Position numbers and translations under genes: made by a program
Assembly (NCBI GenBank): GCA_040395055.1
Contig: JBEBRC010000001.1
Coordinates: 4,542 to 68,541 of the forward strand
Length of the DNA stretch: 64,000 nt
From: Steroidobacter denitrificans
GTDB lineage: Bacteria > Pseudomonadota > Gammaproteobacteria > Steroidobacterales > Steroidobacteraceae
Direction: 5' to 3'
In this document: positions 9,406-24,458 of the stretch, in pieces
Numbering within the stretch: the first letter of the stretch is position 1
Layout: the number at the start of each line of letters is the position of its first letter
Notes under the pieces: model-generated
Told to the model about the DNA's origin: nothing
The model's input: the letters and a program-made list of their open reading frames with translations, nothing else
Databases searched by the model: none

Positions 9406-11028
9406 TCACAGCGATCCGGGAACAATCGGATTGAATGCGATCAATCCATCCAGGCTGCCGCCGGTCCCCAGCGCATTGCCAAAGCGGGCATTGAAGCTGC
9501 CCGCCTCCCCATGCAGCGCCATGTAGTTCAACAGCACGGTCTGCACCAGCAGATTCACATTGTTCGCAGCCGGGCTGCTCGAAGTCACGACGTCGCCGCC
9601 GGCGCTGTAATAGCCGAGCTGCTGATGGCGTGCCTCGGAGCCGCTGGTCAACAGCACAGGCCTGCCTCCCAGCGCCGGCGGGTTGTAGACCAGGAAGAAG
9701 GAAGCAGCGACCTGCTGGTTGTCGCCGGTCCATTCGCCCTTGCCCCTGCCGTCCTGCGAATCGTCGATACGGCCGTTGGACGACAAGGAGCCGTCGCTGA
9801 AGACATACAGCATCAGAGGCTTGCCGCGGCGAGCGGCAAATTCCAGGCAGGCCCCCATGCAGCGGCCGGCGCGCAGATCCCGCAGCTCACCCGTCGAGCG
9901 CTCGCCGGTGTGATAGTCGAATCCACCCATGCTGACCGTGCCCGCCCCGGCATAACCCTCGATTACCAGCTTCATCACCGCCGCCGTCTTTTCGAATTCC
10001 CGGTCGTTGCCGAAGTTCGGCCCGAACACGCCGCCGGCGCCGGTGATATCCGGATCGGCGGCGGGATTGATGGCGGCCGGACTACTGAACTTGTCGACGG
10101 TGTCGGCGGTCTTCACGTAGCCGCACTTGACCTGGGTCTTCAGTTCCGAGCCACTCGCCACCAGCGGATCGACCGCATCCAGCTTCTGTTCGGTGATGCG
10201 CGCCATCTGCTCCATGACCGCCACCGTCGAGGCCGTATCGGGCGATCCGTCCGGCTTGGTGAACAGGGTGCCGAGTGCACCGGTATCCACCAGCCCCGTC
10301 GCATCGCCGGTCCGGTCGACCTTGGTCGGCCGGTTCTCGGGCGTCATGAGCATCGCCGGCGCCATGGAATTGCCGCCGGATTCGGAGTTCTGCGAACCGA
10401 TGAGCGTCAGCAGCTCGCCGCGTGCGCCGGCGCGCGCGATCCCGTACATCGGATTATGGGGATTGTTCCCGGTGTCGTTCTCGGAGCGTGCCGCGATCAC
10501 CGCGCCATTGATGCCCGCGCGCGTGGCCGGGCTGGTCTTCTCGAGAATGCCGCGCAGGAAAGCGCTATCGGAATGAAACGCCAGGCCCAGCTGGGTATCG
10601 ATGAAATTCGTGGTCGCGTTGTTGGGCAGCATGTCGCCAGGCAGCCCCTGCTTCGAGTAGCCCTGGGTGGACAGGAAATCGAGCTGGCCTCCCGACTGCC
10701 CGACCAGCACATTCGAACCGCTCATGCTGGCGCCGCCTGCCAGATCGAAGCAGATGAAGGGAATCTTGCCCGCCCCCTGCTGAATGTTGCAGATCGCGGG
10801 CGAATCGGCCAGGTAGCGGATGTCGGGCGACAGGAATGATTCCTGGGCCCGGGCCGAGCGCGGGTTCAACAGCGCCGCCAGCATCCCCGGCGCGACCACC
10901 GTGGCGGCGCCGCTCAAGAATCCCTGGGCCAGGAAGTCGCGCCGTGATACGGGACGCTTGTGCGATCCGTGCTTGAGCGGTTCGTCGACATGTAGCCGAC
11001 GTTTCTTGCGGGACTTGATAATCAGCAT
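9406..11028 (-). CDS. Tat-exported DUF1501-like (alkaline-phosphatase-superfamily-like) protein of unknown function
   Basis: Twin-arginine signal (SRRDFLAQGFLSGAATVV...ARAQE). DUF1501-like motifs from memory (FDLAGGAS, GGFDYHTGE). ATG at 11028 is preceded by GAGG. Last gene of the minus operon. Confidence 0.7.
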   Translation of the reverse strand: MLIIKSRKKRRLHVDEPLKHGSHKRPVSRRDFLAQGFLSGAATVVAPGMLAALLNPRSARAQESFLSPDIRYLADSPAICNIQQGAGKIPFICFDLAGGASMSGSNVLVGQSGGQLDFLSTQGYSKQGLPGDMLPNNATTNFIDTQLGLAFHSDSAFLRGILEKTSPATRAGINGAVIAARSENDTGNNPHNPMYGIARAGARGELLTLIGSQNSESGGNSMAPAMLMTPENRPTKVDRTGDATGLVDTGALGTLFTKPDGSPDTASTVAVMEQMARITEQKLDAVDPLVASGSELKTQVKCGYVKTADTVDKFSSPAAINPAADPDITGAGGVFGPNFGNDREFEKTAAVMKLVIEGYAGAGTVSMGGFDYHTGERSTGELRDLRAGRCMGACLEFAARRGKPLMLYVFSDGSLSSNGRIDDSQDGRGKGEWTGDNQQVAASFFLVYNPPALGGRPVLLTSGSEARHQQLGYYSAGGDVVTSSSPAANNVNLLVQTVLLNYMALHGEAGSFNARFGNALGTGGSLDGLIAFNPIVPGSL

Positions 11029-11078
11029 GACTGCCTCGTCGACGAACAACCGGCGAACCATGACGCTTTCATGGTTCG

Positions 11079-13613
11079 CTACCGAATGAGAACCGCGCCG
11101 CTACCCAGCACGGCGCCGCAAGTGGCCTTGGCCACCAGCCGGGTACGGTCCGCGGAGCAGCTGCCGCCGCAATTGGCAAGCTGTCCGACCAGTGCATACA
11201 AGCCCGGGCGCGCCGGCTCGCCGGCCGGCGCCGTCCCCCCCTTCAAGCTGGTACCGAGCGGCTGCGTGGCAAGTCCGGTACCGATCATTCTTTCTATAAG
11301 CGGGTCGATCAGCAGATCCTTGCCAGCGTCCGAGGCAAAGACCGTGCTTGCCGCCCCGCCCAGATCCAGGCCCGGGAAATAGCTGGACGCAGCAGGCGAC
11401 TCGATCAGCGCATCGCAATATTGGATCGCAAGCTGCGCGATGGCGGTCTGATGGGATGAAAGGAACGCCTCGATGCCGTGCGTGGCCGGCAACGATTGCC
11501 GCACGTTCGAGAACACCGCTTTCACCGCGGCGGTGTTCGGATCGACCCCCGTCACCGCCGCCATCGTGGCGTTGATGCCATCGAAGGTGCGTACGCCGAT
11601 GTCTGGCGGACGCGGCACATCGGCAACGCTCGACGAGCCTACGCTGGCATAGTTCGAGCAAACGCCGGAACTGGCGCCGAGCTGATCGAAGCACAGGAAG
11701 AATTCGTCCTCATCCGCTCCGCGCTCCACCGCGATGATGGTGCCGATGCTCGACAGCGCCTGGCCACCCGCAGCCGAATAACCGGCATCGCTGATCACCG
11801 TATCGAGCAAGCGATAGGCCTGTCCGACGTGCGGCTCGACGCCATTGACGCCAATGCGCATGCCGCGCAGAACGATGCTTCCCGGCGTCGCCGCCGGATC
11901 CAGGCTGATGAATTTCGGATTGTTGAACAAATATCCGTAGCTGTCGTACTGCGAGACTTCGAACAGGATGTACGAGCGCGGCATGTTCACCAGATGTTCG
12001 ACGCCGAACAGCAGGAAGAACTTTTCGCCGACCCCGGCCTCGAAGTTCTGCTGGATCTGCTGCAGGGTCAACGCACGGTTGTGAACCGCCACCATCCTGA
12101 TCACACCCGTCCACTGGCGATCGTTGCTGACCTCGTTGCCGAGCACGAACGCGAAACTGTTGTCCCAGTCCCCGAGGGTGCCTCCGCCTGCGCTGTCGAG
12201 ATCGCCCGTGAACTCTCCATTGACATGGATGCGCCGGCCGTTCACCGGATCGAACGTCACGACCACATGCTGCAGGGAAGCCTGCAGACGCTGGTCGGCA
12301 TCGGGGGTCGAGAGCCGAGGCAGCCCGTTGGCGTCGGTCGCGGTACTGCGCCCGAGGAAATCGTAGCTGTAGAGAGTCTGGCCCAGGGTAAAGTTCCTGG
12401 CGGTGGCGCTGCCGGAATAGCTCACGATCCGCGTATCTTCCTGGGTCACGTTGCCTGGCGTGACCCAGGCTTCTATCGAGTATTCACCGGTGGCGGTGAT
12501 CAGCTGATGAAATTTACGGCTCGCCGTCGTCGATGCCTGTGCTTTGCCGGTACGCACGTTGATGCCCCAACCCCCGACCCACGACACGTCGCCCGATAGC
12601 GTCAGGTCGGCGGCCGGGTCCTGCCCGCTGGTATCGTACGCCGTGGCGCCCACACCGCTCTTGAACTCGTACAGTGCGATAAGATTGTTTTCATAGCGAT
12701 TGCCGCCGCTGGCGACGGTGCCGTCACGCAAGGTCAAGGCCTTGCTGACAACCATGCCGGGATCGATCTGTGTGGTATCGATGGCATCCGACATCGCCTG
12801 GATGGCCGCCCGCATGGCTGCCGCATCCTGCTTGCAGTCCGCGCTCCAGCAGTTGTGCGATTCGCGCTCCAGGCGAATCACCAGTCGCGAATCGGCGGGC
12901 TGGTCGAGATTGATTTTCGGAATCGCGGCGTTGTACGCCTCGGCATGCACTGCCAGCGATGGATTGAACGGACGCTCGCCGGCGGCGAAATAAGGTGACT
13001 GGGGCGTTGCGGCGTTGGATTGATGGCAGTCGGAACAGAACCGGTCCAACAGATCGTACACCGCTGCGAACTCCGCCGGCGGCGTCGCGGGGAAACGCTT
13101 GCTCGCACCCGGATCGAGCGCAATCGGCGCCTCCAGTTCGATCTGCCGTCCACCGCTCGCGCTCTCGCCCACCCAGTCCTGGATCCAGCGCGCCAGGATG
13201 CTGGCACAGGCACCGGCGTCCGCCAGCCAGCAGTTATGGCCGCCACCAACCTTGGTGACCATGAGCGACTGCCCGGGAAAGTCGCGATCCACGGTCGCGG
13301 CGGCTTGCTGGTAGGCCGCGTTCACATCATCGGAGCGCGCAAACTGCGGTGCCTGGCCGCCCGCCCCATGGCAGTTGCCGCAACGATTGCCGCCGCGCAC
13401 GTTCTCCCAGAAATTGACCCGGAAGGACTGGATGTCGGCCGGCGCCGGCGACGGCGCCCCCGAAACACGACCCCCCCCAGGTCCGGTTGTAACCGGATTG
13501 GTCTCGGTCGAGGCGCCGCCCCCCCCACCCGCCCATGCGATGACGCCAAACAAGGCCAGCACCGCAAGGCCTGCGACACTGCCGCGAGTGGGGTGTTTGG
13601 GAATGCGCATCAT
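11079..13613 (-). CDS. Large exported protein with two N-terminal CxxCH...HNCW modules, a central LamG/concanavalin-like domain and a C-terminal domain of unknown function
   Basis: N-terminal hydrophobic signal or anchor. CGNCH is encoded at 13368-13382 and CSDCH at 13023-13037. LamG-like stretch (LYEFKSG...EYSIEAWV...FVLGNE...WTGVIRMVAVHNRALT). ATG-ATG at 13613/13610 with AAGGAAG upstream. Confidence 0.75.
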   Translation of the reverse strand: MMRIPKHPTRGSVAGLAVLALFGVIAWAGGGGGASTETNPVTTGPGGGRVSGAPSPAPADIQSFRVNFWENVRGGNRCGNCHGAGGQAPQFARSDDVNAAYQQAAATVDRDFPGQSLMVTKVGGGHNCWLADAGACASILARWIQDWVGESASGGRQIELEAPIALDPGASKRFPATPPAEFAAVYDLLDRFCSDCHQSNAATPQSPYFAAGERPFNPSLAVHAEAYNAAIPKINLDQPADSRLVIRLERESHNCWSADCKQDAAAMRAAIQAMSDAIDTTQIDPGMVVSKALTLRDGTVASGGNRYENNLIALYEFKSGVGATAYDTSGQDPAADLTLSGDVSWVGGWGINVRTGKAQASTTASRKFHQLITATGEYSIEAWVTPGNVTQEDTRIVSYSGSATARNFTLGQTLYSYDFLGRSTATDANGLPRLSTPDADQRLQASLQHVVVTFDPVNGRRIHVNGEFTGDLDSAGGGTLGDWDNSFAFVLGNEVSNDRQWTGVIRMVAVHNRALTLQQIQQNFEAGVGEKFFLLFGVEHLVNMPRSYILFEVSQYDSYGYLFNNPKFISLDPAATPGSIVLRGMRIGVNGVEPHVGQAYRLLDTVISDAGYSAAGGQALSSIGTIIAVERGADEDEFFLCFDQLGASSGVCSNYASVGSSSVADVPRPPDIGVRTFDGINATMAAVTGVDPNTAAVKAVFSNVRQSLPATHGIEAFLSSHQTAIAQLAIQYCDALIESPAASSYFPGLDLGGAASTVFASDAGKDLLIDPLIERMIGTGLATQPLGTSLKGGTAPAGEPARPGLYALVGQLANCGGSCSADRTRLVAKATCGAVLGSGAVLIR

Positions 13614-13626
13614 GCTCGAAGCTTCC

Positions 13627-14946
13627 TTAATTGCCGGCGCAGTACGCCGCGGTCTCGGCAAAGACGTGCTTCAGGTTGCCCGTGCCTTTGAAGGTCGCGG
13701 TGCTGTTGCCGACCTGAAGACGATCCTGATCGTCGCTCGGGGAACGAAAGCAGATCGTACGAAATACCTTCTCTACCTGGCATTGGGCAAACGCGTCGCT
13801 ATGGGACAGCTCCTCACCCAACGACTTCGCTCCATTGCCGTGACCGGGGCCCGCCGCCCAGCCCAGCGACGTATTGCGCCCCGGCAAGCGCCAGTAGTTG
13901 TCCCAACGATCATCCGGCGTCACGAAGCCGGGTTTGAAGTTGTCGGAGTTGATCAGGTATTTCGGTTGTACTTGTCCCGCGGTGTAGACCAGCCGGCCCT
14001 GCTCCGGATCAGCGTCGTACTGGAAGGTGTAGTAGGCGAAGGCCTGGGTCATCGGGTCCATGCCGGTATGGCAGCCGACGCAATTATTGTTGAAGACGCT
14101 GCTGTCGCCCCCCGGGCTGCGCGTTACGTCCTGGCGGATGCGATCCGGCGGCAGCGAAGGATCGTGCACCTGCTCCAGGTCCCGGCACAGATGATTGAGC
14201 AACGTAAAGCGAAACATCGCGCGGTTCGTACCGTCGATGAAGAAGGCCCGGGCCGCGGCGCGGGAGGTAATGACGCCGGCGGTCGCGCTCGAGGGCAAGC
14301 CGTTGAGCGAAGACTGGGCCGTGGAGGTGAGCACCAGGCGCAGGTCCGCGTTATCGCTTTCCAGCGCTTCGTAATGCGCGTTGCTGGTCGGTGAATAGGC
14401 CGGCGAGACACCGCTGCCGACATATACGATGTCGTCCACGAGAATGCTGCGGAAATCCACCTCGTCGCGCACGACCCCGATGACGGTCGCGGTGTAGTCG
14501 TTGAGCGGCGCGAAGACGGCCTGGTCGCGATTCGTCCAGGGGGTCGCGAAATTCTTCAAGGTAACGTTGTAGAAGTTCTTCGAACGCTCGCTGCCCGGAT
14601 CCATGATGTACAGCGCCGCGCCGACCGGATCGCTCTGCACCCTGGTTGCCAGGTCGGTGAGCAAGGCGGGAGAGGGCGAGGTGCCGGTCAGCCGGTCGTA
14701 CATGCGTTTCGCGCGCTCGCGCGGCCCGGCGGCCGCTGGCTGCAGTCCGGCGGCGAAAGCCGCGAGCGCAAGGACCACCACCATGGCGATCCTCGAGGAG
14801 GGGCGTCGCGTCCTGCCGCGCCACGCGGGCCGGTCGTGCGCGGCTGCGGCCTTGTCGCTCATCGGCGCCCGCTGCGCGCTGCCATCGGCCAGGCGCGCGC
14901 GCGCGCCGGCGCACGATGTCTTCCGTATATCGTTCATGCTACCCAT
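13627..14946 (-). CDS. Exported DUF1588/PSD-like protein with one CxxCH motif
   Basis: Signal peptide (RIAMVVVLALAAFAAGLQPAAAG). CVGCH is encoded at 14068-14082, followed by ...GMDPM, which resembles the C..CH..DP motif of Planctomycete-type PSD/DUF1588 domains (from memory). Start uncertain: 14946 has an AGGGGA SD; alternatives are 14937 and 14862. Confidence 0.65.
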   Translation of the reverse strand: MGSMNDIRKTSCAGARARLADGSAQRAPMSDKAAAAHDRPAWRGRTRRPSSRIAMVVVLALAAFAAGLQPAAAGPRERAKRMYDRLTGTSPSPALLTDLATRVQSDPVGAALYIMDPGSERSKNFYNVTLKNFATPWTNRDQAVFAPLNDYTATVIGVVRDEVDFRSILVDDIVYVGSGVSPAYSPTSNAHYEALESDNADLRLVLTSTAQSSLNGLPSSATAGVITSRAAARAFFIDGTNRAMFRFTLLNHLCRDLEQVHDPSLPPDRIRQDVTRSPGGDSSVFNNNCVGCHTGMDPMTQAFAYYTFQYDADPEQGRLVYTAGQVQPKYLINSDNFKPGFVTPDDRWDNYWRLPGRNTSLGWAAGPGHGNGAKSLGEELSHSDAFAQCQVEKVFRTICFRSPSDDQDRLQVGNSTATFKGTGNLKHVFAETAAYCAGN

Positions 14947-15480
14947 GCCGGAATCCCCTGCGGACCCGTTGATCGGCCCTTGATCGGTCACGTCTGTGCG
15001 GCGGCGTGCGCGCATCCGGCCCGCCATCCCACTACAGTGCGAACGACTATACGATTCGCAGGATGTAGCAGTAATCTGTCTCAATCGTCAGACGTCGCCT
15101 GCAAGAGACAGTACCGGCCCCAACCCACGCGCGTGTAGTCTCGCCGCCAGCCGACATCCTCGGCGTGCGGCCAATCGATGCCATCCCATTCAACTTCGAA
15201 GGCAATGCGAGGAATGTGATCGACGTCACGCAATCGAGCGCTGCGAGGTGCCGCAACAGGAGCAATCGGCAAATTCGTGCGCTCGTCGCTGGCTTGCCGG
15301 ATCATGGAATATGCTTCATCGGCAAGCATGCCTCGGCATGACAGGTGCGCAGGCCGAAGACTTTGGGGAACACGCTGCATGGGGCATGAGGTCGAAACAA
15401 TCGTGGGTTGCGCGCATCAGGCCGCTGGCCGCGTCGGCGTAAGGCCCCTTGCCCGCCTGCGTGCCGGGGCAGGCAAGGCC

Positions 15481-18207
15481 ATGGCAGGCGCCGTGGTGAT
15501 GGCCATGCTCGGCGCCTGCAGCAGCGGCAGCGGTGGCACGGACGTGACGATCGGCAGCGGTCAGAACGCCGACCCGGTGACGCTCGATTTCCCCGTGTTC
15601 TACGTCAAGCGGCCAGTACCGGATTCGCAAGACAATGCCGCCCAGGCGGATGCTCGCCGGCTACGCCGCTTCGACATCGGCGCCGACCTGTTCATGCGCG
15701 ATCGCGCCTCGATCTCCGCGGCCGAGATCAACCTGACGGCCGGGCACACGCAAGGCCTGGGCGATGTGCGCGATGTCGAGGTGAGCTTCGATGGCGCCAA
15801 GGTGGTCTTTTCGATGCGCGCGCAGTTCATCGAAAACGCCGCCGAGGAACAGCAGCCGACGTGGAATATCTGGGAGTACGACACCGCCACCAGCAGCCTG
15901 CGCCGCGTCATCCAGTCGGACACGGTTGCACAAGAGGGGCATGACATCATGCCCCACTACCTGCCCGACGGCAGAATAGTATTCTCCTCCACACGCCAGC
16001 GGCAATCACGCGCCATCCTGCTGGATGAAAGCAAGCCGCAGTTCGCCGCCCAGGACGAGGACGATCGTGAGCCCGCGTTCGTGCTGCACGTCATGGAGGC
16101 CGATGGCACCAACATTCACCAGGTGTCCTTCAACCAGAGTCACGACCTGGATCCTGCGATCCTGCCGGACGGCAGGATCGTCTTCACACGCTGGGAGCAT
16201 CATAGCGACGACAGCCAGTTCGACCTGTACAGCATGAACCCGGACGGGACCGCTCTGGAACTGTTGTACGGTGCGAACAGCCATGAGACCGGCACGCCCG
16301 ACCCTGCCACCGGGCGACCCGCCACCATTCAGTTCCTGAATGCTCGAACGATGCCGGATGGACGCACGCTGGCGCTGATCCGACCGTTCCAAGGCACCGG
16401 CGAAGGGGGCGACCTGGTGCTGATCGACACCGACAACTACGTCGACGACACCCAGCCGCTCGCAGCCAGCGAGGGGATGAGCGGACCGGCGCAAGTGCGC
16501 GCGCTGCCGACCGACGTGCGCACCATCGCCGGTCCATCACCCGGCGGGCGATATCGCTCCGCCGCCGCATTGTTCGATGGTACGGATCGCCTGCTCGTGA
16601 GTTGGTCGCAATGCCGCCTGGTGGACGCCACGCGCATCGTGCCCTGCACCAGCGAACGACTGGCCGACCCGGATGCCGTCGAAGCCCCGCCGCTGTATGG
16701 CTTGTATATCTATGATCTGCGCGACAACACGCAGCAGCCTATCGTCGTGCCGCAGGAAGGCTTCATCTACACCGAGGTCGTTTCCGGCTCCTCGCGCCCG
16801 CTGCCGCCGGTCATCCTGGATCGCGTCCCGGGCGTCGATTTTGCCGATGATCTGCTGGCGCAAAGTGTCGGCGTCCTGCACATCCGCAGCGTGTACGACA
16901 TGGACGGCGTCGACCAGGCACCCGGCGGCATCGCCGCCGTGCGCGATCCCGGCAATGCCGCCTATGCCACGCGGCCGGCGCGTTTCCTGCGCATCGAGAA
17001 GGCCGTCTCCCAACCGGATGACGCGACGCGTGATGTGCCGGGCACGGCGTTCGGCCCGCAGCGCTCGCTGGGCATGCGCGAAATCCTCGGCTACGCGCCG
17101 ATCGAGCCGGACGGATCGGTCAAGGTCAAGATCCCCGCCAACGTAGCCTTCGGCATCAGCGTGCTGGACGCCAGCGGGCGGCGCCTGCCGGCGCCGCTGG
17201 GCAATCGGCACACCAACTGGCTGCAGGTATTGCCCGGCGAAGTGCTGGAATGCAATGGCTGTCACAATCCGAACAGCGATCCGCCGCGCGCTCACGGCCG
17301 GCGCGGCCTGAGCGCTTCGGTCAACGAGGGCGCACCGACCACCGGCAGCGCCTTCCCGAACACCAACGCCGCCCTGTTCGCCGATATGGGTGAAACCATG
17401 GCGCAAGTACGCAATCGCATCATGTGCGCCGGCACCATCGCCTGCGAACCAAGCGTCGACGTTGCCTTCCAGGACTACTGGCCGGCGGCGCCGATTGCGC
17501 CCGCAGCAGCGGTGGATCTTTGCTATGCCCGCGGGATCTCGACGGTGCAGAGCGACCCGGCCGATCCGACGGCGCGCGTCGCATGCGAGAACGCACTGAG
17601 CACGCCGCTGCCGACTCCTGCCGGCTGCCTGGCGCAATGGCACAGCGGTTGTCGTATCACGATCCATTACGAGCAGCACATTCATCCCTTGTGGAGCAAG
17701 GAGCGCACGGTCGATGCCGACCTCGACGGCATCCCGGACCTGGACCCGGACAACGCCGCGCTGGTGATCAACCACCGCTGCAACGGCTGCCACCTGCCCG
17801 CGAATGCGATGGGCGCCCTCGATGTGCCGGCGGGCGATCTGGACCTGAGCGATGGCCCCTCCGAGGAGGAGCCGGATCGGTTCCGGGCCTATCGCGAGCT
17901 GCTGTTCGCCGACCGCGGCCAGATCCTGGATGCGAACGGCCAGCTGGCTGACGAGTGCCTGCAGATCGAGATCGATCCGGTCACGAATGTCGAGACCTGC
18001 ATCGCGTACCGCAATGTGCCCGCCTCGATGAGCGCCGCGGGCGCCCGCGCCTCTGCCCGGTTCTTCGACACCCTGGAAGGACGCCGGGTGGGCAGGGTCG
18101 ACCATAGCGACTTTATGTCGCCGAGTGAGTTACGCTTGCTCTCCGAATGGCTGGATATCGGCGCGCAGTACTACAACGATCCGTTCGCGGCAGCCCCGGA
18201 GAATTGA
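15481..18207 (+). CDS. Lipoprotein with a TolB/PD40-like beta-propeller and two CxxCH motifs (HzsA-related-like)
   Basis: Lipobox MAMLGAC. Repeated propeller signatures (HYLPDGRIVFSSTRQ, ILPDGRIVFTRWEH, MNPDGTALELLYG). CNGCH is encoded at 17251-17265 and again at 17779-17793. The start could be 15379. Confidence 0.75.
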   Translation: MAGAVVMAMLGACSSGSGGTDVTIGSGQNADPVTLDFPVFYVKRPVPDSQDNAAQADARRLRRFDIGADLFMRDRASISAAEINLTAGHTQGLGDVRDVEVSFDGAKVVFSMRAQFIENAAEEQQPTWNIWEYDTATSSLRRVIQSDTVAQEGHDIMPHYLPDGRIVFSSTRQRQSRAILLDESKPQFAAQDEDDREPAFVLHVMEADGTNIHQVSFNQSHDLDPAILPDGRIVFTRWEHHSDDSQFDLYSMNPDGTALELLYGANSHETGTPDPATGRPATIQFLNARTMPDGRTLALIRPFQGTGEGGDLVLIDTDNYVDDTQPLAASEGMSGPAQVRALPTDVRTIAGPSPGGRYRSAAALFDGTDRLLVSWSQCRLVDATRIVPCTSERLADPDAVEAPPLYGLYIYDLRDNTQQPIVVPQEGFIYTEVVSGSSRPLPPVILDRVPGVDFADDLLAQSVGVLHIRSVYDMDGVDQAPGGIAAVRDPGNAAYATRPARFLRIEKAVSQPDDATRDVPGTAFGPQRSLGMREILGYAPIEPDGSVKVKIPANVAFGISVLDASGRRLPAPLGNRHTNWLQVLPGEVLECNGCHNPNSDPPRAHGRRGLSASVNEGAPTTGSAFPNTNAALFADMGETMAQVRNRIMCAGTIACEPSVDVAFQDYWPAAPIAPAAAVDLCYARGISTVQSDPADPTARVACENALSTPLPTPAGCLAQWHSGCRITIHYEQHIHPLWSKERTVDADLDGIPDLDPDNAALVINHRCNGCHLPANAMGALDVPAGDLDLSDGPSEEEPDRFRAYRELLFADRGQILDANGQLADECLQIEIDPVTNVETCIAYRNVPASMSAAGARASARFFDTLEGRRVGRVDHSDFMSPSELRLLSEWLDIGAQYYNDPFAAAPEN

Positions 18208-18947
18208 TGTCCCGTCTGATTTCGCTGCTGGGCCTGCTGGCTTGCTTTTGGACGCTGGCGGCACAGGCTGACGACCCCCTCAGGATTCTGATCGCCGACC
18301 CGTTCATCGAACTGCATACCGGACCGGGACGCGGCTACCCGATATTCCATGTCGTCGAGCGCGGCCGGGAAGTCACGCTTCTGAAGCGGCGCACCGACTG
18401 GTTCCAGGTGCGCACGGACCGGGGCATCGAGGGCTGGGTCCCGCGGGCACAGATGATCGCGACCCTCGAGCCGACCGGCGAACCCCTGGACCTGGAGGAA
18501 CCCGCGCGCGAGAATTACATGAGCCGCCGCTGGCAGGCAGGGATCATGGCCGGCGACTTCGCCGGCGCCAGCCTGATCTCGGCTTTCGGCGGTTATTCGT
18601 TCAGCGACAACTTGTCGATCGAGCTGGCGTTCAACCATATCCTGGGCGAATTCTCCAACGGCTACAGCGCAACCATCGGCCTCATGCACGTGTTCGTGCC
18701 CGAGTGGCGCCTGTCGCCCTACTTCACGCTGGGCACAGGCATCATACACATCGAGCCCAAATCGACGTTGGTACGCGCCGTCGACCGTGACGACCAGATC
18801 GGCTATGTCGGCGGTGGGCTGCAGTTCTATCTCACGCGGCGTTTCATGCTGCGCACGGAATACCGCAACAACGTCATTTTCACCAGCCGCGACGACAACG
18901 AGGAAGTGGACGAATGGAAGTATCTCGGGTTCGCCTTCTTTTTCTGA
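18207..18947 (+). CDS. Bacterial SH3 domain fused to a small outer-membrane beta-barrel
   Basis: ATG at 18207 overlaps the upstream TGA (TGATG). Signal peptide (LLGLLACFWTLAAQADD). SH3-like region (GREVTLLKRRTDWFQVRTDRGIEGWVPRAQM). C-terminus ...WKYLGFAFFF. Confidence 0.75.
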   Translation: MSRLISLLGLLACFWTLAAQADDPLRILIADPFIELHTGPGRGYPIFHVVERGREVTLLKRRTDWFQVRTDRGIEGWVPRAQMIATLEPTGEPLDLEEPARENYMSRRWQAGIMAGDFAGASLISAFGGYSFSDNLSIELAFNHILGEFSNGYSATIGLMHVFVPEWRLSPYFTLGTGIIHIEPKSTLVRAVDRDDQIGYVGGGLQFYLTRRFMLRTEYRNNVIFTSRDDNEEVDEWKYLGFAFFF

Positions 18948-19621
18948 CCGCGGCCGCTGCCGTCGTCCTGCCCGGTTGCGCGTGGATCGGCAGCGATCGC
19001 ACCGACGCGCCGCCGCAGTCCGTCCCCCCCGTATCGACGCCGGCCGGAACCGGCGAGCCCGCCGAGCGCTCGGTCATCGAGCCGCAGGTCGAGCGCCGCG
19101 AGATCCGGCGCGCGCGCATCGACACGGAAGATTTCGAAATCGGCGCATATGCCGGCATCCTCAGCATCGAGGACTTCGAGAGCAATGTCGTGTACGGCGC
19201 GCGCCTCGCCTATCACCTGACCGAGGATTTTTTCCTGGAGGCAACGCTGGGCCGTTCGCGGGCCGGACGCAGCAGCTACGAGAAACTATCCGGCTCCGCG
19301 CAACTGCTCAGCGACAGCGAGCGCGACTACACCTACTACGCGCTCTCGGCTGGATGGAATGCCCTGCCGGGGGAGATCTTCGTCGGCAAGAACCGTTCCT
19401 ACAATTCGGCGTTCTATCTGCTGGCCGGTCTGGGAAGTACCCGCTTCGCTGGTGACGACCGTTTCACGGTCAGCGGCGGATTCGGCTACCGCGTCCTGCC
19501 TGCCGACTGGATCGCCGTGCACTTCGACGTGCGCGACCATGTATACGACATAGATCTGCTGGGCGAGAAGAAGATCGTCAATAATTTAGAAGCGCATCTC
19601 GGACTGTCGTTTTTCTTCTGA
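18914..19621 (+). CDS. Outer-membrane beta-barrel lipoprotein
   Basis: Lipobox VVLPGC. Alternating amphipathic strands. C-terminus ...LEAHLGLSFFF. Overlaps the upstream gene by 34 nt. Confidence 0.7.
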   Translation: MEVSRVRLLFLTAAAAVVLPGCAWIGSDRTDAPPQSVPPVSTPAGTGEPAERSVIEPQVERREIRRARIDTEDFEIGAYAGILSIEDFESNVVYGARLAYHLTEDFFLEATLGRSRAGRSSYEKLSGSAQLLSDSERDYTYYALSAGWNALPGEIFVGKNRSYNSAFYLLAGLGSTRFAGDDRFTVSGGFGYRVLPADWIAVHFDVRDHVYDIDLLGEKKIVNNLEAHLGLSFFF

Positions 19622-19626
19622 GCACC

Positions 19627-20169
19627 ATGCATCCTGGACCACCCTGGCTACAGGCATCTCGAACCATGCTGCTGCGAAACCTCGATCGTTGGCTCCGAAT
19701 CTGCGCACTGTCCGCTGCGCTGGCGATGTCGTCGCTGGTCGGCGCCAGCACCTCCAGCGCACCCAACTTCACGCTGCCCGCACGCGAGGGCGGGCAGATA
19801 TCGCTGGAGCAGCTCAAGGGCCAGGTAGTGATGCTCAATTTCTGGGCCAGCTGGTGCGGTCCCTGCCGCCAGGAGATGCCCTTGCTGGATACGATGTACC
19901 AGCGCTACAGCGCCCTGGGATTCACCCTGCTGGGCGTGAATGTCGAGGCAGACACCCAGGATGCCGAGCGCTGGCTCGCCCAGACACCTGTCTCTTTTCC
20001 GGTACTGTTCGACAAGGACAGCCAAGTGAGCAAACTGTACGACGTCAGTGCCATGCCCAGCACCGTATTCATCGATCGCAAGGGCAACGTGCGTTATCTG
20101 CACCGCGGCTACAAGCCTGGCGACGAAGGCGAGTACTTGAACCAGATTCGCGCATTGCTGAAAGAGTGA
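19627..20169 (+). CDS. TlpA/ResA-family periplasmic thiol:disulfide oxidoreductase
   Basis: Signal or anchor segment, then VVMLNFWASWCGPCRQEMP (WCGPC active site) and the AMPSTVFIDRKG cis-Pro loop. The start may be the internal Met at 19666. Confidence 0.85.
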   Translation: MHPGPPWLQASRTMLLRNLDRWLRICALSAALAMSSLVGASTSSAPNFTLPAREGGQISLEQLKGQVVMLNFWASWCGPCRQEMPLLDTMYQRYSALGFTLLGVNVEADTQDAERWLAQTPVSFPVLFDKDSQVSKLYDVSAMPSTVFIDRKGNVRYLHRGYKPGDEGEYLNQIRALLKE

Positions 20170-20251
20170 GGCCCCTGTGACCGCTCCGATTATCGAGGAT
20201 TGCAGCCGGACGCGCAGCGCGGCAAACCATGCGGCGAGACCCGGTACCCGG

Positions 20252-20494
20252 ATGCGCGCACGGGCGCGCGGCGTTCTTTCCGCGCTGGCCCTGGCCACCG
20301 CCGCCCTGGGTAGCGGCGGCTGCGGCAACATCGAACCCTGGGTCAAGCCTTACGAACGCCAGGCACTTGCCGATCCGATCATGTCGCTGGATCGCAATCC
20401 GGTTTCGACGGCATACATGCAGCACGTATTCGAAGCGCGCGAAGGCGCACGCGGCGCGCGCGGCAGTGCGGGCGGCGGTTGCGGCTGCAACTGA
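20252..20494 (+). CDS. DUF4266-like small lipoprotein
   Basis: Lipobox ALGSGGC. WVKPYERQALADPIMSLDRNP core. Characteristic C-terminus GGGCGCN (family assignment from memory). An alternative GTG start lies at 20177. Confidence 0.75.
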   Translation: MRARARGVLSALALATAALGSGGCGNIEPWVKPYERQALADPIMSLDRNPVSTAYMQHVFEAREGARGARGSAGGGCGCN

Positions 20495-21750
20495 TGCGTG
20501 ACCCAGGCATGAGCAAGGCGCCCGTGGCCCCCGTGGCCAGTGCCGCACACCGCGGCGGTGCTCGAGGAGCATTCACGCTGGCATGGCTCGCGCCCATTTT
20601 CCTTGCAACCGGGTTCGCGGCCGCCCATGCCGGCGTATTGGCCGAAGATCGCGCCGACGTTCTCTATCATCGCTACCAGGGCGGCGGCGTTACGATTCAC
20701 GGGCCCTCGGTGCTGGTACGCAAGAAAATGGCGGAAAAATATGCCGTCAGCGCCAACTACTACACCGACATGGTCACCAGCGCCTCCATTGACGTCGAAG
20801 TCAGCGGTGCCAGCGAATACAAGGAGCAGCGCGATCAGTACAGCCTCGGCTTGGAGTATCTTCGCGGCAAGACCATTTACAGCCTGGGCTACAGCAACAG
20901 CAAGGAAAACGATTACCAGGCCGAAACCGCCTCCTTCGGCATCAGTCAGGATTTGTTTGGCGATCTGACGACGATCACCATGGGTTTTTCGAAAGGATCG
21001 GATACGGTGCGCAAGCGAGACACGATCACCGACCGCGTCGATCCGAATTTCAACGAACCCATCGATCGCTGGAACTACCGGGTCGGCGTTTCGCAAGTCA
21101 TGACCAAGACCTTGATCATGGTCCTGGACCTGGAGGTCATCACGGACGAGGGCTACCTCAACAATCCGTATCGCTCGTACCGCTATATCAATCCAAGCGA
21201 CGAGCGATTGTTCGCGCTCGATGCGGAGGTTTATCCGCGCACTCGAACCAGCAACGCGGTGGCGCTGAATGCTCGCTATTTCCTGCCCTACCGCGCTGCC
21301 TTGCACGGCGGTTATCGCTTCTTTACCGATACCTGGGGTATCGGCTCCAATACCTTCGAGCTGGGGTACACTCATCCGCTGGGAAAGGAATGGATCTTCG
21401 AGGCGAGCTATCGCCACTACACCCAGGACCGCGCCGACTTCTATAGCGATTTGTTCGAGCGGCGCGACGAACAGAATTTCATGGCGCGCGACAAGGAGCT
21501 CTCGACCTTCAGCAGCCAGACGTTCAGAATCGGCGCCAGCTATGAATTCGCCTCCACCGGATGGCGCTTCGTGAAGAAAGGCACCGTCAATATCTTTTAC
21601 GACCGTATCGAGTTCGACTACGAGGACTTCCGGGATGCTCGCTACTCGTTGCTGCCAGCGACCGATCCGCGCTTCCGTCCAGTCGGCTCGGAACCGTTCT
21701 ACGCTTTCGGCGCCAACGTATTCCAGGCATTCGTTTCGATCTGGTTCTGA
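20494..21750 (+). CDS. DUF3570-like outer-membrane protein
   Basis: ATG at 20494 overlaps the DUF4266 TGA (TGATG); an alternative ATG lies at 20509. Signal peptide ...GFAAAHA. Motifs ADVLYHRYQGGGVTIHGPSVLVRKK and VSANYYTDMVTSASIDV. C-terminus ...AFVSIWF. Confidence 0.75.
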   Translation: MRDPGMSKAPVAPVASAAHRGGARGAFTLAWLAPIFLATGFAAAHAGVLAEDRADVLYHRYQGGGVTIHGPSVLVRKKMAEKYAVSANYYTDMVTSASIDVEVSGASEYKEQRDQYSLGLEYLRGKTIYSLGYSNSKENDYQAETASFGISQDLFGDLTTITMGFSKGSDTVRKRDTITDRVDPNFNEPIDRWNYRVGVSQVMTKTLIMVLDLEVITDEGYLNNPYRSYRYINPSDERLFALDAEVYPRTRTSNAVALNARYFLPYRAALHGGYRFFTDTWGIGSNTFELGYTHPLGKEWIFEASYRHYTQDRADFYSDLFERRDEQNFMARDKELSTFSSQTFRIGASYEFASTGWRFVKKGTVNIFYDRIEFDYEDFRDARYSLLPATDPRFRPVGSEPFYAFGANVFQAFVSIWF

Positions 21751-21771
21751 ACCAGAAGAACCCTCGCCGGC

Positions 21772-22752
21772 ATGAGGCGGCGCGCCAGCGGCGGCATCGC
21801 AGTGGGCACGGTGTGTCTGCTGGCCTCTGGCGGCGGCGCACTTGCCTCCCCCGCACTTCCCACCCGGGACCAGAATCCTCTGCTCGCGGGGTTCGGGTTG
21901 CCCATGCCATTCCCCTCGCGCCCGGTCCGCGATGCGGAGGTCCTGTCGATCGACCTGAACTGGAGCAATACCGCACTCGCCCAGACGGACGGATCGCAGT
22001 ACCTGCTGGTCGATGCCGAGACGCGCGAGCTGCGGCTCACCTATCGCGGATCGTTGACGAAACATCTCGCCTTCGGGCTGCAAATCCCTTACCGGTATAC
22101 CGGCGCCGGCGTGCTCGATGGCTTCATCGATGGTTGGCATGACGCCTTCGGGCTGCCGCAGGGAGTCCGCCCGGCGCTGGCGAGAGATCGCATCCGTATC
22201 CGGTACTCGCGCGACGCCACGCAGCGTATCGATGTCGAGACTTCCGCCCAGGGACTGGGCGATGTCTCGGCCGATGTCGGCTATGGCCTGGTCGATACGG
22301 CCTCCTCCTCCGCCATGGCCTGGCTTAGCCTCAAGTTGCCGACGGGGCAAACCGGCCGTCTGGCGGGAAGCGGTGCCGCCGACGTCACGCTGGCCGTGGC
22401 GGCCGAACATCGCTGGGATGCACGATGGTCCGCCTACGCGCAGATCGGCGTGACCTGGCTTGGGGAAGGCGACTTGCTCCCGGATCAGCAGCGCAACCTG
22501 GTCTGGAGCGGCCTGGCCGGGATGAGCTGGCGCATCGGGCCTCGACTGGCGCTCAAGGCCCAGGCGGACGCCCACTCCGCCGCTTTCACGGGCACGCGGC
22601 TGGATATGCTCGGCGAGGCACTCATTCTGAGTATCGGTGCCGACTATCGATTCGCCTCGGGGTGGCAATTGGACCTGGGCTTTAGCGAAGACGTCGCGGT
22701 CGAAGCGTCGCCCGACATCGTATTCATCGTCGGCGTGCGCCGATCGCTGTAG
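21772..22752 (+). CDS. DUF3187-like outer-membrane protein
   Basis: Signal peptide. LPTRDQNPLLAGFGLPMP start. Barrel-like repeats. C-terminal ...FSEDVAVEASPDIVFIVGV. Family assignment from memory. Confidence 0.6.
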   Translation: MRRRASGGIAVGTVCLLASGGGALASPALPTRDQNPLLAGFGLPMPFPSRPVRDAEVLSIDLNWSNTALAQTDGSQYLLVDAETRELRLTYRGSLTKHLAFGLQIPYRYTGAGVLDGFIDGWHDAFGLPQGVRPALARDRIRIRYSRDATQRIDVETSAQGLGDVSADVGYGLVDTASSSAMAWLSLKLPTGQTGRLAGSGAADVTLAVAAEHRWDARWSAYAQIGVTWLGEGDLLPDQQRNLVWSGLAGMSWRIGPRLALKAQADAHSAAFTGTRLDMLGEALILSIGADYRFASGWQLDLGFSEDVAVEASPDIVFIVGVRRSL

Positions 22753-23018: not shown

Positions 23019-24455
23019 ATGCTTGGACTGACAGCACTCGAGCTCGCGCGGATACAGTTCGGCTTCACGATATCGTTTCACATCATATTCCCGGCCATCA
23101 CGATCGGCCTGGCGAGCTATCTCGCCGTCCTTGAAGGTCTGTGGCTGTGGAAAAAGGAGACGGTGTATCGCGATCTCTATCATTTCTGGTCCAAGATCTT
23201 TGCCGTCAATTTCGCCATGGGTGTCGTCTCCGGGCTGGTCATGGCCTACCAGTTCGGCACCAATTGGAGTTATTTCTCGGCCTTCGCCGGTTCCATCACC
23301 GGACCGCTGCTTGCCTATGAGGTGTTGACCGCCTTCTTTCTCGAAGCCGGATTCCTCGGCGTCATGCTGTTCGGATGGAACCGGGTGGGTCCGGGCCTGC
23401 ACTTCTTTTCCACCATCATGGTCGCGCTTGGCACGCTCATCTCCGCCACCTGGATCCTTGCTTCGAACAGCTGGATGCACACCCCTCAGGGTTTCGAAAT
23501 CATCGACAACGTCGTGGTGCCGGTGAATTGGCTGCAAGTGATCTTCAATCCCTCGTTCCCGTACCGGCTGGCGCACATGACCGTCGCCGCATTCCTCGCC
23601 ACCGCAGCCTTCGTCGGGGCCTCCGCGGCATGGCATCTGCTGCGCGGCAACGACAACGACCGCATCCGCACCATGCTCTCCATGGCGATGTGGATGCTGC
23701 TGCTGGTGGCGCCCGTCCAGGTCTTGATCGGCGACCTGCATGGCCTGAACACGCTGCAGCACCAGCCGGCCAAGATCGCAGCGATAGAAGGCCACTGGGA
23801 AAACAAGCCCGGCGAGGGCGTACCGCTGATCCTGTTCGGTTGGCCCGACATGAAAGAGGAAACGACACGCTACAAAATCGAGATCCCCAAGCTGGGCAGC
23901 TATATCCTCACTCGCGATTGGAACGGCCAGTTTCCCGCCCTCAAGGAGTTTGCCGCCGAGGATCGCCCCAATTCGACGGTGGTGTTCTGGAGCTTTCGCA
24001 TCATGGTCGGGCTGGGAGCGCTGATGCTGCTGCTCGGCGCCTGGGGAGCGTGGCTGCGCTGGCGCGGCGCGCTCTACCGGCAGCGGCATTTCCTGCACTT
24101 CGCCGCCTGGATGGGACCGTCGGGCCTGATCGCCATTCTCGCCGGCTGGTATACGACCGAAATCGGCCGCCAGCCCTGGATCGTGCACGGCGTCATGCGT
24201 ACCAAGGATGCCGTGTCGGGTCATTCGGTGCTGACGATGAGCGTCACCCTGCTGGTATTCATCGTTGCCTATTTCATCGTCTTCGGCATCGGCGCGCGTT
24301 ACATGCTCAGGCTGGTCGGCGAGGGGCCACAGGTCGCGCCGGACGAACCGCCGGATGCCGATTCGCGACCGCATCACCGGCCGGCAAGGCCGCTGTCGGC
24401 CGCGCCCGATCACGTCGGTGCGCACGGGTCGCCCACGGGCGAGCAGGGAGGATGA
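23019..24455 (+). CDS. cydA: Cytochrome bd-type ubiquinol oxidase subunit I (short Q-loop, CioA-like)
   Basis: MLGLTALELARIQFGFTISFHIIFPAITIGLASYLAVLEG... and GWYTTEIGRQPWIVHGVMRTKDAVS signatures. 478 aa. Confidence 0.93.
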   Translation: MLGLTALELARIQFGFTISFHIIFPAITIGLASYLAVLEGLWLWKKETVYRDLYHFWSKIFAVNFAMGVVSGLVMAYQFGTNWSYFSAFAGSITGPLLAYEVLTAFFLEAGFLGVMLFGWNRVGPGLHFFSTIMVALGTLISATWILASNSWMHTPQGFEIIDNVVVPVNWLQVIFNPSFPYRLAHMTVAAFLATAAFVGASAAWHLLRGNDNDRIRTMLSMAMWMLLLVAPVQVLIGDLHGLNTLQHQPAKIAAIEGHWENKPGEGVPLILFGWPDMKEETTRYKIEIPKLGSYILTRDWNGQFPALKEFAAEDRPNSTVVFWSFRIMVGLGALMLLLGAWGAWLRWRGALYRQRHFLHFAAWMGPSGLIAILAGWYTTEIGRQPWIVHGVMRTKDAVSGHSVLTMSVTLLVFIVAYFIVFGIGARYMLRLVGEGPQVAPDEPPDADSRPHHRPARPLSAAPDHVGAHGSPTGEQGG

Positions 24456-24458
24456 GGG

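Follow-up and report, generated by a model that had tools for sequence, protein, structure and literature searches.

An HzsA-Related Lipoprotein, a DUF3570 Thiol/Flavin Module, and a Cytochrome/Tat Operon Share a Conserved Divergent Locus in Steroidobacter denitrificans and Its Relatives

What could a locus be for whose ten products all appear to be exported and several of which carry motifs for c-type haem? The locus in question lies in a 64-kb stretch of contig JBEBRC010000001.1 of Steroidobacter denitrificans (this whole stretch is called the window throughout), where three minus-strand genes (m1–m3) are divergent from seven plus-strand genes (p1–p7). It contains the published module of DUF3570 and its partners in a context larger than, and different from, any found in the literature searched. 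Our reading is that the locus encodes one envelope electron-transfer assembly, in which electrons would pass from DsbD through a TlpA-type protein, a DUF4266 lipoprotein, and a DUF3570 protein bearing flavin mononucleotide (FMN) to c-type haems and a catalytic site. We give this reading a probability of roughly 0.45, a little short of even odds. It draws on the co-location of the genes, the conservation of their redox motifs, the recruitment of ApbE and DsbD to the locus in relatives, and the published flavinylation of DUF3570, as well as on overlapping gene junctions and a symmetric promoter element shared by the two operons. The genes of the locus, together with a gene for ApbE elsewhere in the window, are as follows.

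m1: 13627–14862, minus strand; mono-haem c-type protein with CVGCH at 14068–14082 and a start at 14862, 14784, or 14946.
m2: 11079–13613, minus strand; LamG/concanavalin A (ConA)-like di-haem protein of 844 amino acids (Laminin_G_3, 69 bits), with CxxCH at 13368–13382 and 13023–13037.
m3: 9406–11028, minus strand; protein of 540 amino acids exported by twin-arginine translocation (Tat), with SRRDFL at 10930–10947 and the conserved motif GGFDYH at 9910–9927, and with no family model.
p1: 15481–18207, plus strand; HzsA-related lipoprotein of 908 amino acids, with the lipobox LGAC at 15508–15519 and matches to PF18582 (47 bits) and PD40.
p2: 18207–18947, plus strand; Sec-exported protein predicted to join an SH3 domain to a small outer-membrane beta-barrel (SH3_3, 39 bits; OMP_b-brl, 30 bits).
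p3: 18914–19621, plus strand; predicted outer-membrane beta-barrel lipoprotein with the lipobox LPGC at 18968–18979 (TIGR04565, OMP_myx_plus, 175 bits; cut-off 60).
p4: 19627–20169, plus strand; periplasmic TlpA/ResA-type thiol:disulfide oxidoreductase with CGPC at 19855–19866 (AhpC-TSA, 109 bits; Redoxin, 106 bits).
p5: 20252–20494, plus strand; small DUF4266 lipoprotein (PF14086, 84.5 bits) with a GGC lipobox and a C-terminal CGC-N at 20480–20491.
p6: 20494–21750, plus strand; DUF3570 protein, a probable outer-membrane barrel (PF12094, 144 bits, cut-off 25; weak Porin_4 match).
p7: 21772–22752, plus strand; DUF3187 protein, a predicted outer-membrane barrel (PF11383, 147 bits; Phenol_MetA_deg, 36 bits).
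ApbE: 34968–35999, minus strand; lipoprotein FAD (flavin adenine dinucleotide):protein FMN transferase (PF02424, 284 bits) with the lipobox FMGC.

The first question is whether these genes belong together at all. Two scans bear on it: a genome scan that compared the p1 alignment with one genome per species (at least 574 loci, the best 80 examined), and a metagenome scan anchored on seven distant sequences of the m3 family (at least 557 matches, the best 80 examined). Presence was called by tblastn and with hidden Markov models (HMMs) built from orthologues, and a locus was evaluable for a gene when its contig reaches that gene; the resulting counts of co-occurrence depend on similarity to the query, and more distant relatives may differ. 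The 80 genome loci, with p1 at 51–75% identity, come from Steroidobacteraceae, Povalibacter, and uncultured Gammaproteobacteria. The preliminary description, written from the window's letters alone, had treated all ten genes as one set; nine of them, m1-m2-m3 divergent from p1–p6, stand together without any change of order wherever a locus is evaluable (p2 74/74, p3 71/71, p4 69/69, p5 64/64, and p6 61/61 on the plus side; m1 71/71, m2 64/64, and m3 57/57 on the minus side). The metagenome loci sit on contigs with G+C contents (GC) of 34–74%, with the full layout seen from 40 to 74% GC, and p1 stands beside m1 in 31 of the 35 that have enough flank. The identity of p1 to its window counterpart correlates with that of the other genes (r = 0.70–0.89), the pattern that inheritance as one block would leave. 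Chance does not account for this adjacency, and the genes are co-inherited as a block.

The tenth gene, p7, fared differently: only 27 of 57 evaluable loci carry it, which removes it from the proposed ten-gene unit and makes it a clade-specific accessory outside the core. Distant loci that lack p7 have an ApbE homologue inside the locus instead, a clade-level pattern; only in one of them, L045, does ApbE take the very place of p7, directly after p6.

Rarer layouts indicate how the block is built. Two loci (L106 and L108) carry the series ApbE-DUF3570-DUF4266-TlpA-DsbD divergent from m1-m2-m3, with a full-length DsbD (DsbD_N, DsbD_TM, and Thioredoxin_7) in place of p1–p3, a layout that ties the m operon directly to the published DsbD-flavin module even without p1–p3. 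Two others (L081 and L083) contain only the m operon, and their m2 is divided, with one gene on each side of m3. The system is modular: m1–m3 form a core, usually joined by the thiol/flavin module and usually also by p1–p3.

What the p4–p6 part is likely to do can be read from published work. The earlier statements that nothing in the locus has a characterised function, and that TlpA-DUF4266-DUF3570 is an uncharacterised combination, are outdated: a DUF3570 protein has been shown experimentally to be a substrate of ApbE, flavinylated at two [S/T]GA[S/T] motifs, and the module has been described together with DsbD (PMC8238504). Clusters of ApbE, DUF3570, a thioredoxin-like protein, and DUF4266 with a C-terminal CXC number 227 with DsbD and 316 without (PMC8238504), and a hybrid thiol/flavin electron-transfer system running from DsbD through the thioredoxin-like protein to DUF4266/DUF3570 was proposed for them, with the DUF4266 CXC alternately oxidised and reduced (Meheust et al., eLife 2021; PMC8238504). 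The suggestion that the TlpA protein acts on the GCGCN cysteines of DUF4266, made before any comparison with the literature, agrees with that proposal.

The window copies keep the residues on which such a scheme would depend. The TlpA-type label given to p4 holds at the level of the AhpC-TSA/Redoxin fold; its NCBIfam scores for ResA (118.7 bits, cut-off 170) and TlpA (64.5 bits) both fall below the cut-offs, its named matches are ResA, DsbE/CcmG, and TlpA, and WxxCxxC is kept in 70 of 71 orthologues. In p5, both the C-terminal CxC (33/33 orthologues) and the lipobox Cys (34/34) are fully kept. The p6 protein has two flavinylation motifs of the ApbE type in tandem, DMVTSAS at 20767–20787 (conserved in 64/64 orthologues) and SGAS at 20803–20814 (59/64); the second fits [S/T]GA[S/T] and the first, as TSAS, has Ser for Gly. 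No other flavinylation-type motif of the locus is as conserved as these, the next best being TTAS of m2 (50/69).

The enzyme that would load the flavin is also at hand. The window ApbE scores 290 bits against the NCBIfam ApbE equivalog (cut-off 498) and is the probable maturation enzyme of p6. In 25 of 80 genome relatives and 22 of 37 metagenome relatives (47/117), a homologue of ApbE is encoded no more than 10 kb from the locus. It often follows p6 (L045) or m3 immediately, or comes behind m3 with a methyltransferase gene in between (L042 and L056). ApbE is likely a tenth core component, one that the earlier gene list had missed.

Further genes accompany ApbE in these places. In a distant clade, the minus operon continues past m3 with a methyltransferase, ApbE, a second TlpA-like redoxin, and a protein of ~200 amino acids without a Pfam match (L042:3124-4389; L056:2967-4340, 1276-1821, and 710-1339). 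The S-adenosylmethionine-dependent methyltransferase of L042 and L056 has a CARME-like domain, with a Trm112-like N-terminus detected in L042 only, and no recognisable export-related domain, so that it is presumably cytoplasmic. The corresponding region after p6 in the third such locus (L045:17269-18401) holds ApbE, a second redoxin, and a small unassigned protein. In the window itself, ApbE adjoins, on the opposite strand and convergently, a gene for an exported protein of 310 amino acids at 33918–34850 with no Pfam or NCBIfam match.

If p4–p6 carry electrons, p1 is a conspicuous candidate to receive them. The preliminary description had called it a beta-propeller lipoprotein with two CxxCH motifs, and both the motifs and the lipobox stand; what it missed is the relationship to the alpha subunit of hydrazine synthase, HzsA, which emerges from PF18582 and from structure 5c2v. 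The protein is laid out as an N-terminal PD40-type beta-propeller, an HZS_alpha middle domain with CxxCH at 17251–17265, and a C-terminal domain with CxxCH at 17779–17793, and its score against PF18582 (HZS_alpha) exceeds the threshold of that model. Its sole relative in the PDB is hydrazine synthase alpha (5c2v_A; expectation value (E) 2e-6 with the single sequence and 5e-9 with a profile), to which it aligns in three collinear pieces, namely, a propeller blade, the middle domain, and the C-terminal domain, with both CxxCH motifs in register (those of haems alpha-I and alpha-II). Close homologues are named 'HzsA-related protein' in NCBI and UniRef, both CxxCH motifs occur in 80/80 orthologues, and the lipobox Cys is invariant. 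Four positions beyond the first CxxCH, the alignment reads Ser, at what we take to be the position of the unusual Tyr haem ligand of HzsA.

A function as hydrazine synthase was considered for p1 and rejected, because its score against the HzsA equivalog NF052339 is far too low (40.3 bits against a cut-off of 800) and because the HzsBC partners are missing: neither HzsB nor HzsC is found among the ten products or in the flanks, and none of these gave a CCP/MauG-type or HzsB-type Pfam match. Judged by its sequence, p1 is distantly homologous to hydrazine synthase alpha over its full length and is not a hydrazine synthase. It shares with HzsA (5c2v) the order of three domains and the two collinear CxxCH motifs; it differs from HzsA in being a lipoprotein and in having no HzsB or HzsC gene at its locus. 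The HzsA homologues studied so far outside anammox bacteria pair with a fused beta-gamma gene and are likewise without an assigned function (PMC12758564).

The minus operon supplies the remaining haem motifs. The CxxCH motifs pointed out in the preliminary description proved conserved here as in p1, in 74 of 74 m1 orthologues and, both of them, in 65 of 68 m2 orthologues. Two outcomes that would have refuted the preliminary description, genes that fail to co-occur and CxxCH motifs that are not kept, did not materialise. For m1, the open reading frame is confirmed and the start at 14946 is not: translation probably begins at 14862, which gives 411 amino acids against ~406 in homologues, or at 14784, which gives 385 and is the gene call of the database. 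At standard thresholds, m1 matched no model of Pfam or NCBIfam. The shorter gene model brought up, among sub-threshold Pfam matches (E <= 10), one to PSCyt3 (DUF1588) lying exactly over the CxxCH (E 0.16, 12.8 bits against a cut-off of 27). Orthologues scanned singly gave PSD2 (DUF1585) in 19 of 22 cases (best E 2.7e-5) and PSCyt3 in 15 of 22 (best E 0.013), again below the Pfam thresholds. The label 'DUF1588-like' thus survives as a weak and consistent resemblance and fails as a family assignment; it is a fair pointer to remote similarity, not to membership. An AlphaFold2 (AF2) model of m1 left the haem region unmodelled (predicted local distance difference test score (pLDDT) 56) and gave no significant fold match in the PDB by Foldseek.

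In m2, the C-terminal ~320 amino acids have no known relatives, and weak PSCyt2 matches were found in 8 of 22 orthologues. Sequence and profile searches of all PDB sequences returned no meaningful match for m1, m2, or m3. The anchoring of m2 appears to vary. A lipobox of the form L-[AS]-G-C followed by GG is present in every orthologue sampled (every third of 69), and a looser lipobox pattern fits 65 of 69; the window's signal peptide reads I-A-W-A-G-G (13524–13541), with Gly at the position of the lipid-modified Cys, which suggests that the window m2 is a soluble periplasmic protein rather than a lipoprotein, unless the sequence is in error.

The third product, m3, may be the catalytic one. 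Its Tat motif SRRDFL is canonical and kept in 60 of 62 orthologues. The m3 family comprises 1,484 clusters at 50% identity (E <= 1e-3) and has no model of its own: m3 gave no Pfam match even at E <= 10 and no NCBIfam match. Across 47 members at 29–56% identity, the invariant residues are H23, R29, R30, G98, G99, D185, G369, D371, H373, D412, G413, and D436, a set that makes m3 a candidate metallo-enzyme. The cytoplasmic leader ahead of the twin Arg is conserved throughout the family (consensus PL-x-H-x2-H-x2-P-x-TRR-x-FL, in the window at 10930–11028), with one invariant His six residues ahead of RR, which is unusual for a Tat signal.

The description of m3 as DUF1501-like found no support in any HMM. 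None of 47 diverse relatives matched PF07394 (DUF1501), PF07586 (DUF1552), or any model of the alkaline-phosphatase clan or of sulfatases at E <= 1, and membership of DUF1501 was rejected on that count; a very remote relationship is possible. The AF2 model of m3 is of medium confidence (pLDDT 61), and its top ~40 Foldseek matches are almost all members of the alkaline-phosphatase superfamily, none of them significant (best E 0.19).

How might these parts work together? In the assembly that we propose, reducing power would leave the cytoplasm via DsbD, encoded elsewhere in the genome, and would pass from DsbD to p4 and from p4 to the C-terminal CxC of p5 by two-electron thiol-disulfide exchange. 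ApbE would attach FMN covalently to two Ser sites of the p6 barrel, p5 would reduce that FMN, and the flavin would turn the two-electron input into one-electron steps that feed the c-type haems of p1, m1, and m2. Such a role would suggest a rationale for the flavin, namely, the conversion of two-electron thiol chemistry into one-electron haem chemistry. p1 would be held at the outer membrane together with the barrels p2 and p3, the LamG domain of m2 would bind the substrate, and the electrons would end either at an HzsA-type open haem of p1 or at the Tat-exported putative metallo-enzyme m3. From the pattern of genes and motifs we infer the carrier order, the direction of flow, the outer-membrane location, and the use of one chain by both operons. 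The original idea of a single envelope-resident, redox-flavoured unit is borne out to the extent that the five CxxCH motifs, the CxxC, the CxC, and the flavinylation motifs are all conserved.

Several observations weigh against the assembly. Its carrier order, flow direction, and substrate are our inference only. TlpA-DUF4266-DUF3570 modules occur in many genomes without p1–p3 or m1–m3 (PMC8238504), and L081 and L083 have no DUF3570 module within 8 kb of the m operon; modules found apart imply that the parts can work separately. In the window, ApbE lies outside the locus, 12 kb downstream, and no DsbD (DsbD_TM) was found among the large open reading frames of the 64 kb. The first p6 motif, TSAS, departs from the published Gly, though it is conserved in all 64 orthologues, and the clade with an adjacent ApbE has TTAS or TQAS as its second motif, and with these deviations the flavinylation of these particular DUF3570 proteins is putative. 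The place of p6 in the outer membrane is probable and rests on the weak Porin_4 match, the aromatic C-terminus, and reported insolubility.

Some of the same observations would suit two independent neighbours, that is, a DUF3570 module (p4–p6 with p1–p3) and an m operon that exchange no electrons and owe their adjacency to regulation or history. The lone m operons of L081 and L083 and the wide occurrence of DUF3570 modules without these partners (PMC8238504) fit this picture, as does divergent transcription, with co-expression not required. We nonetheless regard it as unlikely, since every evaluable locus keeps the adjacency, over 40–74% GC and with p1 identity as low as 51%, since the flavin module still faces m1-m2-m3 where DsbD replaces p1–p3 (L106 and L108), and since ApbE often lies directly after m3, on the m side, rather than after DUF3570. 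The locus might instead serve substrate capture and hydrolysis: the LamG domain of m2 would bind a glycan or polymer, m3 would be a sulfatase- or phosphatase-like hydrolase of the alkaline-phosphatase superfamily, and the cytochromes and the p operon would support or regulate it. The Laminin_G_3 domain of m2 and the remote similarity of m1 and m2 to PSCyt3/PSD2 and PSCyt2 are in keeping with the suspicion that the PSCyt/PSD families of Planctomycetes and Verrucomicrobia have a role related to carbohydrates, and verrucomicrobial PSCyt genes often come with carbohydrate-binding modules, beside two unassigned partner gene families (PMC5615132). With few exceptions, the best fold matches to m3 are hydrolases and transferases of the alkaline-phosphatase superfamily, and the Asp and His among the invariant residues of m3 would fit a metal site; those fold matches are nonetheless not significant (best E 0.19) and come from a medium-confidence model, and 0/47 members match sulfatase, phosphatase, DUF1501, or DUF1552 models. 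Hydrolysis, moreover, needs no haems, yet the operon has three invariant CxxCH motifs and always adjoins the thiol/flavin module, while the conserved neighbours include no glycoside hydrolase, sulfatase-maturing enzyme, or sugar transporter. On balance, a hydrolytic system also appears unlikely.

A role in cytochrome maturation was among the suggestions of the preliminary description. Under it, p4 and p5 would form a CcmG/ResA-type reductase that keeps the apocytochrome CxxCH motifs of p1, m1, and m2 reduced, with p2, p3, p6, and p7 as structural parts, and both the best named matches of p4 (ResA, DsbE/CcmG, and TlpA) and the five CxxCH sites encoded in the locus can be cited for it. Haem attachment accounts neither for the recurrence of the TlpA-DUF4266-DUF3570 triad in hundreds of clusters that are defined by ApbE, not by cytochromes (PMC8238504), nor for the two flavinylation-type motifs that p6 keeps (64/64 and 59/64), nor for the recruitment of ApbE to the locus in many relatives, and we consider it very unlikely. 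Of the electron-transfer assembly there is also a bolder form, a trans-envelope conduit in which the flavinylated DUF3570 barrel would replace a multihaem wire and would be fed by cytoplasmic NADPH (reduced nicotinamide adenine dinucleotide phosphate), not by the quinone pool. Electrons would then run from NADPH through thioredoxin, DsbD, TlpA, DUF4266, and DUF3570 to surface or periplasmic haem enzymes, p1 and m1–m3, and the substrate that these enzymes reduce would be extracellular or imported, for example, Fe(III) or nitrogen or oxygen species. This version strikes us as decidedly improbable; if true, it would give three orphan families a function together.

The electron-transfer assembly that we favour has partial precedents. 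Like the module of PMC8238504, the locus has adjacent genes for DUF3570, DUF4266 with CxC, and a thioredoxin-fold protein, two tandem motifs in the DUF3570 protein, and ApbE and DsbD in relatives. It differs in that the module is embedded in a larger block with an HzsA-related di-haem lipoprotein, two small barrels, and a divergent cytochrome/Tat operon, in that the window locus lacks ApbE and DsbD, in that its thioredoxin belongs to AhpC-TSA/Redoxin whereas theirs belongs to PF13899, and in the Ser for Gly of the first DUF3570 motif. The text of PMC8238504 makes no mention of partners of the p1, p2/p3, or m-operon type.

PSCyt3/PSD2 (DUF1588/DUF1585) proteins pair with DUF1552 proteins, and PSCyt1-2/PSD1 proteins with DUF1501 proteins. 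The minus operon resembles these arrangements in that a LamG-type protein with CxxCH motifs and a PSCyt3/PSD2-like protein adjoin a Tat-exported protein; the conserved CxxCH of m1 (74/74) and the same-operon Tat partner m3 (SRRDFL) are shared features. The differences are that the similarities stay below Pfam thresholds, that m3 matches neither partner family, and that each locus has a single pair, found in Gammaproteobacteria and linked to a thiol/flavin module, not dozens of paralogous pairs per genome. A literature search on DUF1501, PSCyt, and DUF1552 found no functional characterisation.

The porin-cytochrome conduits MtrCAB, PioAB, and Pcc of Geobacter offer a third comparison, drawn here from general knowledge. 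Lipoprotein cytochromes, barrels, and translationally coupled genes are common to both. The proteins of the locus have one or two haems each as against 8–12, p2 and p3 are small, and where those systems use a multihaem wire, the candidate redox carrier in the membrane here is a flavinylated barrel. Homology of the locus to porin-cytochrome systems was not detected. The locus matters in that it joins three orphan groups, that is, the DUF3570/DUF4266 module, the HzsA-related proteins from outside anammox bacteria, and PSCyt/PSD-like cytochromes with their Tat partners, and in that m3 defines a family of ~1,500 sequence clusters without a Pfam or NCBIfam model. Cultured Steroidobacteraceae are among the carriers, with strains of Steroidobacter, Peristeroidobacter, and Povalibacter represented in the loci.

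The remaining plus-strand products are predicted barrels. Pfam and NCBIfam confirmed the labels previously given to m2 (LamG), p2 (SH3-barrel), p3 (barrel), p5 (DUF4266), p6 (DUF3570), and p7 (DUF3187). Outer-membrane barrels typically end in an aromatic residue; p2 and p3 end in FFF and p6 in WF. The Cys in the signal peptide of p2 is not conserved, so p2 is not a lipoprotein. The lipobox Cys of p3 is present in 50 of 75 orthologues.

The open reading frames themselves are real. All ten open reading frames exist on the strands assigned to them, with third-position GC of 0.76–0.82, as for real genes of the window, whose overall GC is ~64%. The five CxxCH motifs are exactly where they had been placed in m1, m2, and p1, against a chance expectation of ~0.01 per ~4,500 residues (estimated from typical Cys and His frequencies). 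The gene junctions, re-read in the sequence, agree with those first reported: TGATG stop/start overlaps at 18205–18209 (p1/p2) and 20492–20496 (p5/p6), a p2/p3 overlap of 34 nucleotides (18914–18947), plus-strand gaps of 5 (p3/p4), 82 (p4/p5), and 21 nucleotides (p6/p7), and minus-strand gaps of 13 (m1/m2) and 50 nucleotides (m2/m3, with the m3 start at 11028). The overlaps at p1/p2, p2/p3, and p5/p6 suggest translational coupling and, with it, sub-complexes of the products. Export signals, judged by eye, are present on all ten products as claimed; the six besides m3, p1, p3, and p5 have Sec-type hydrophobic N-termini. The closest protein matches come from Steroidobacter and Steroidobacteraceae genomes (79% identity for p1), and PLSDB gave no match for the window, so that a plasmid origin is unsupported.

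Between the two operons lies one further feature.

Symmetric element: 15076–15111, no strand; 36 bp reading CTGTCTC-N8-GACGTC-N8-GAGACAG, between the divergent operons.

The window has a single copy, where chance would give 0, and 40 of 77 related intergenic regions have the element too. A pattern with 8-bp arms, ACTGTCTC-N18-26-GAGACAGT, occurs once per locus at the same position in 26 loci; the window copy fails it. The spacers of the element are not mutually complementary. We regard 15076–15111 as a candidate operator common to both operons. The intergenic region had no match in Rfam and, by consensus, no sigma-70 promoter or terminator.

Two more blocks are conserved in the same region, one at 15127–15149 (CGCGCGTGTAG[GT]CTCGCCGCC) and one at 15306–15321, with the consensus TGTGAC-N17-GAATATGTCGCGTCGATGATG in 37 loci and a diverged copy in the window.

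The genes around the locus are less constant. Directly upstream are genes for a pyrroloquinoline quinone (PQQ)-dependent dehydrogenase (4820–6802) and a TonB-dependent receptor (7068–9320). The dehydrogenase appears to be a soluble member of the glucose/quinate/shikimate family, matching its model from position 106 with the membrane anchor missing. The receptor is generic, below every subfamily cut-off, with a weak, far sub-threshold match to the PQQ importer PqqU. The receptor is kept beside the locus in 21 loci and the dehydrogenase in 10, in the closest clade only; in L144 and L145, a receptor also follows m3. An iron-uptake role by way of the receptor is a weak proposal, given its generic character and its conservation beside the locus in that clade only. 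On the other side, a gene pair for cytochrome bd oxidase (23019–25466) separates p7 from a gene for a PPK2 polyphosphate kinase (25709–27208). PPK2 is found on the plus-operon side in 40 related loci (directly after the operon in 7/7 inspected) and the bd genes in none of them, so that the bd pair looks like a genome-specific insertion.

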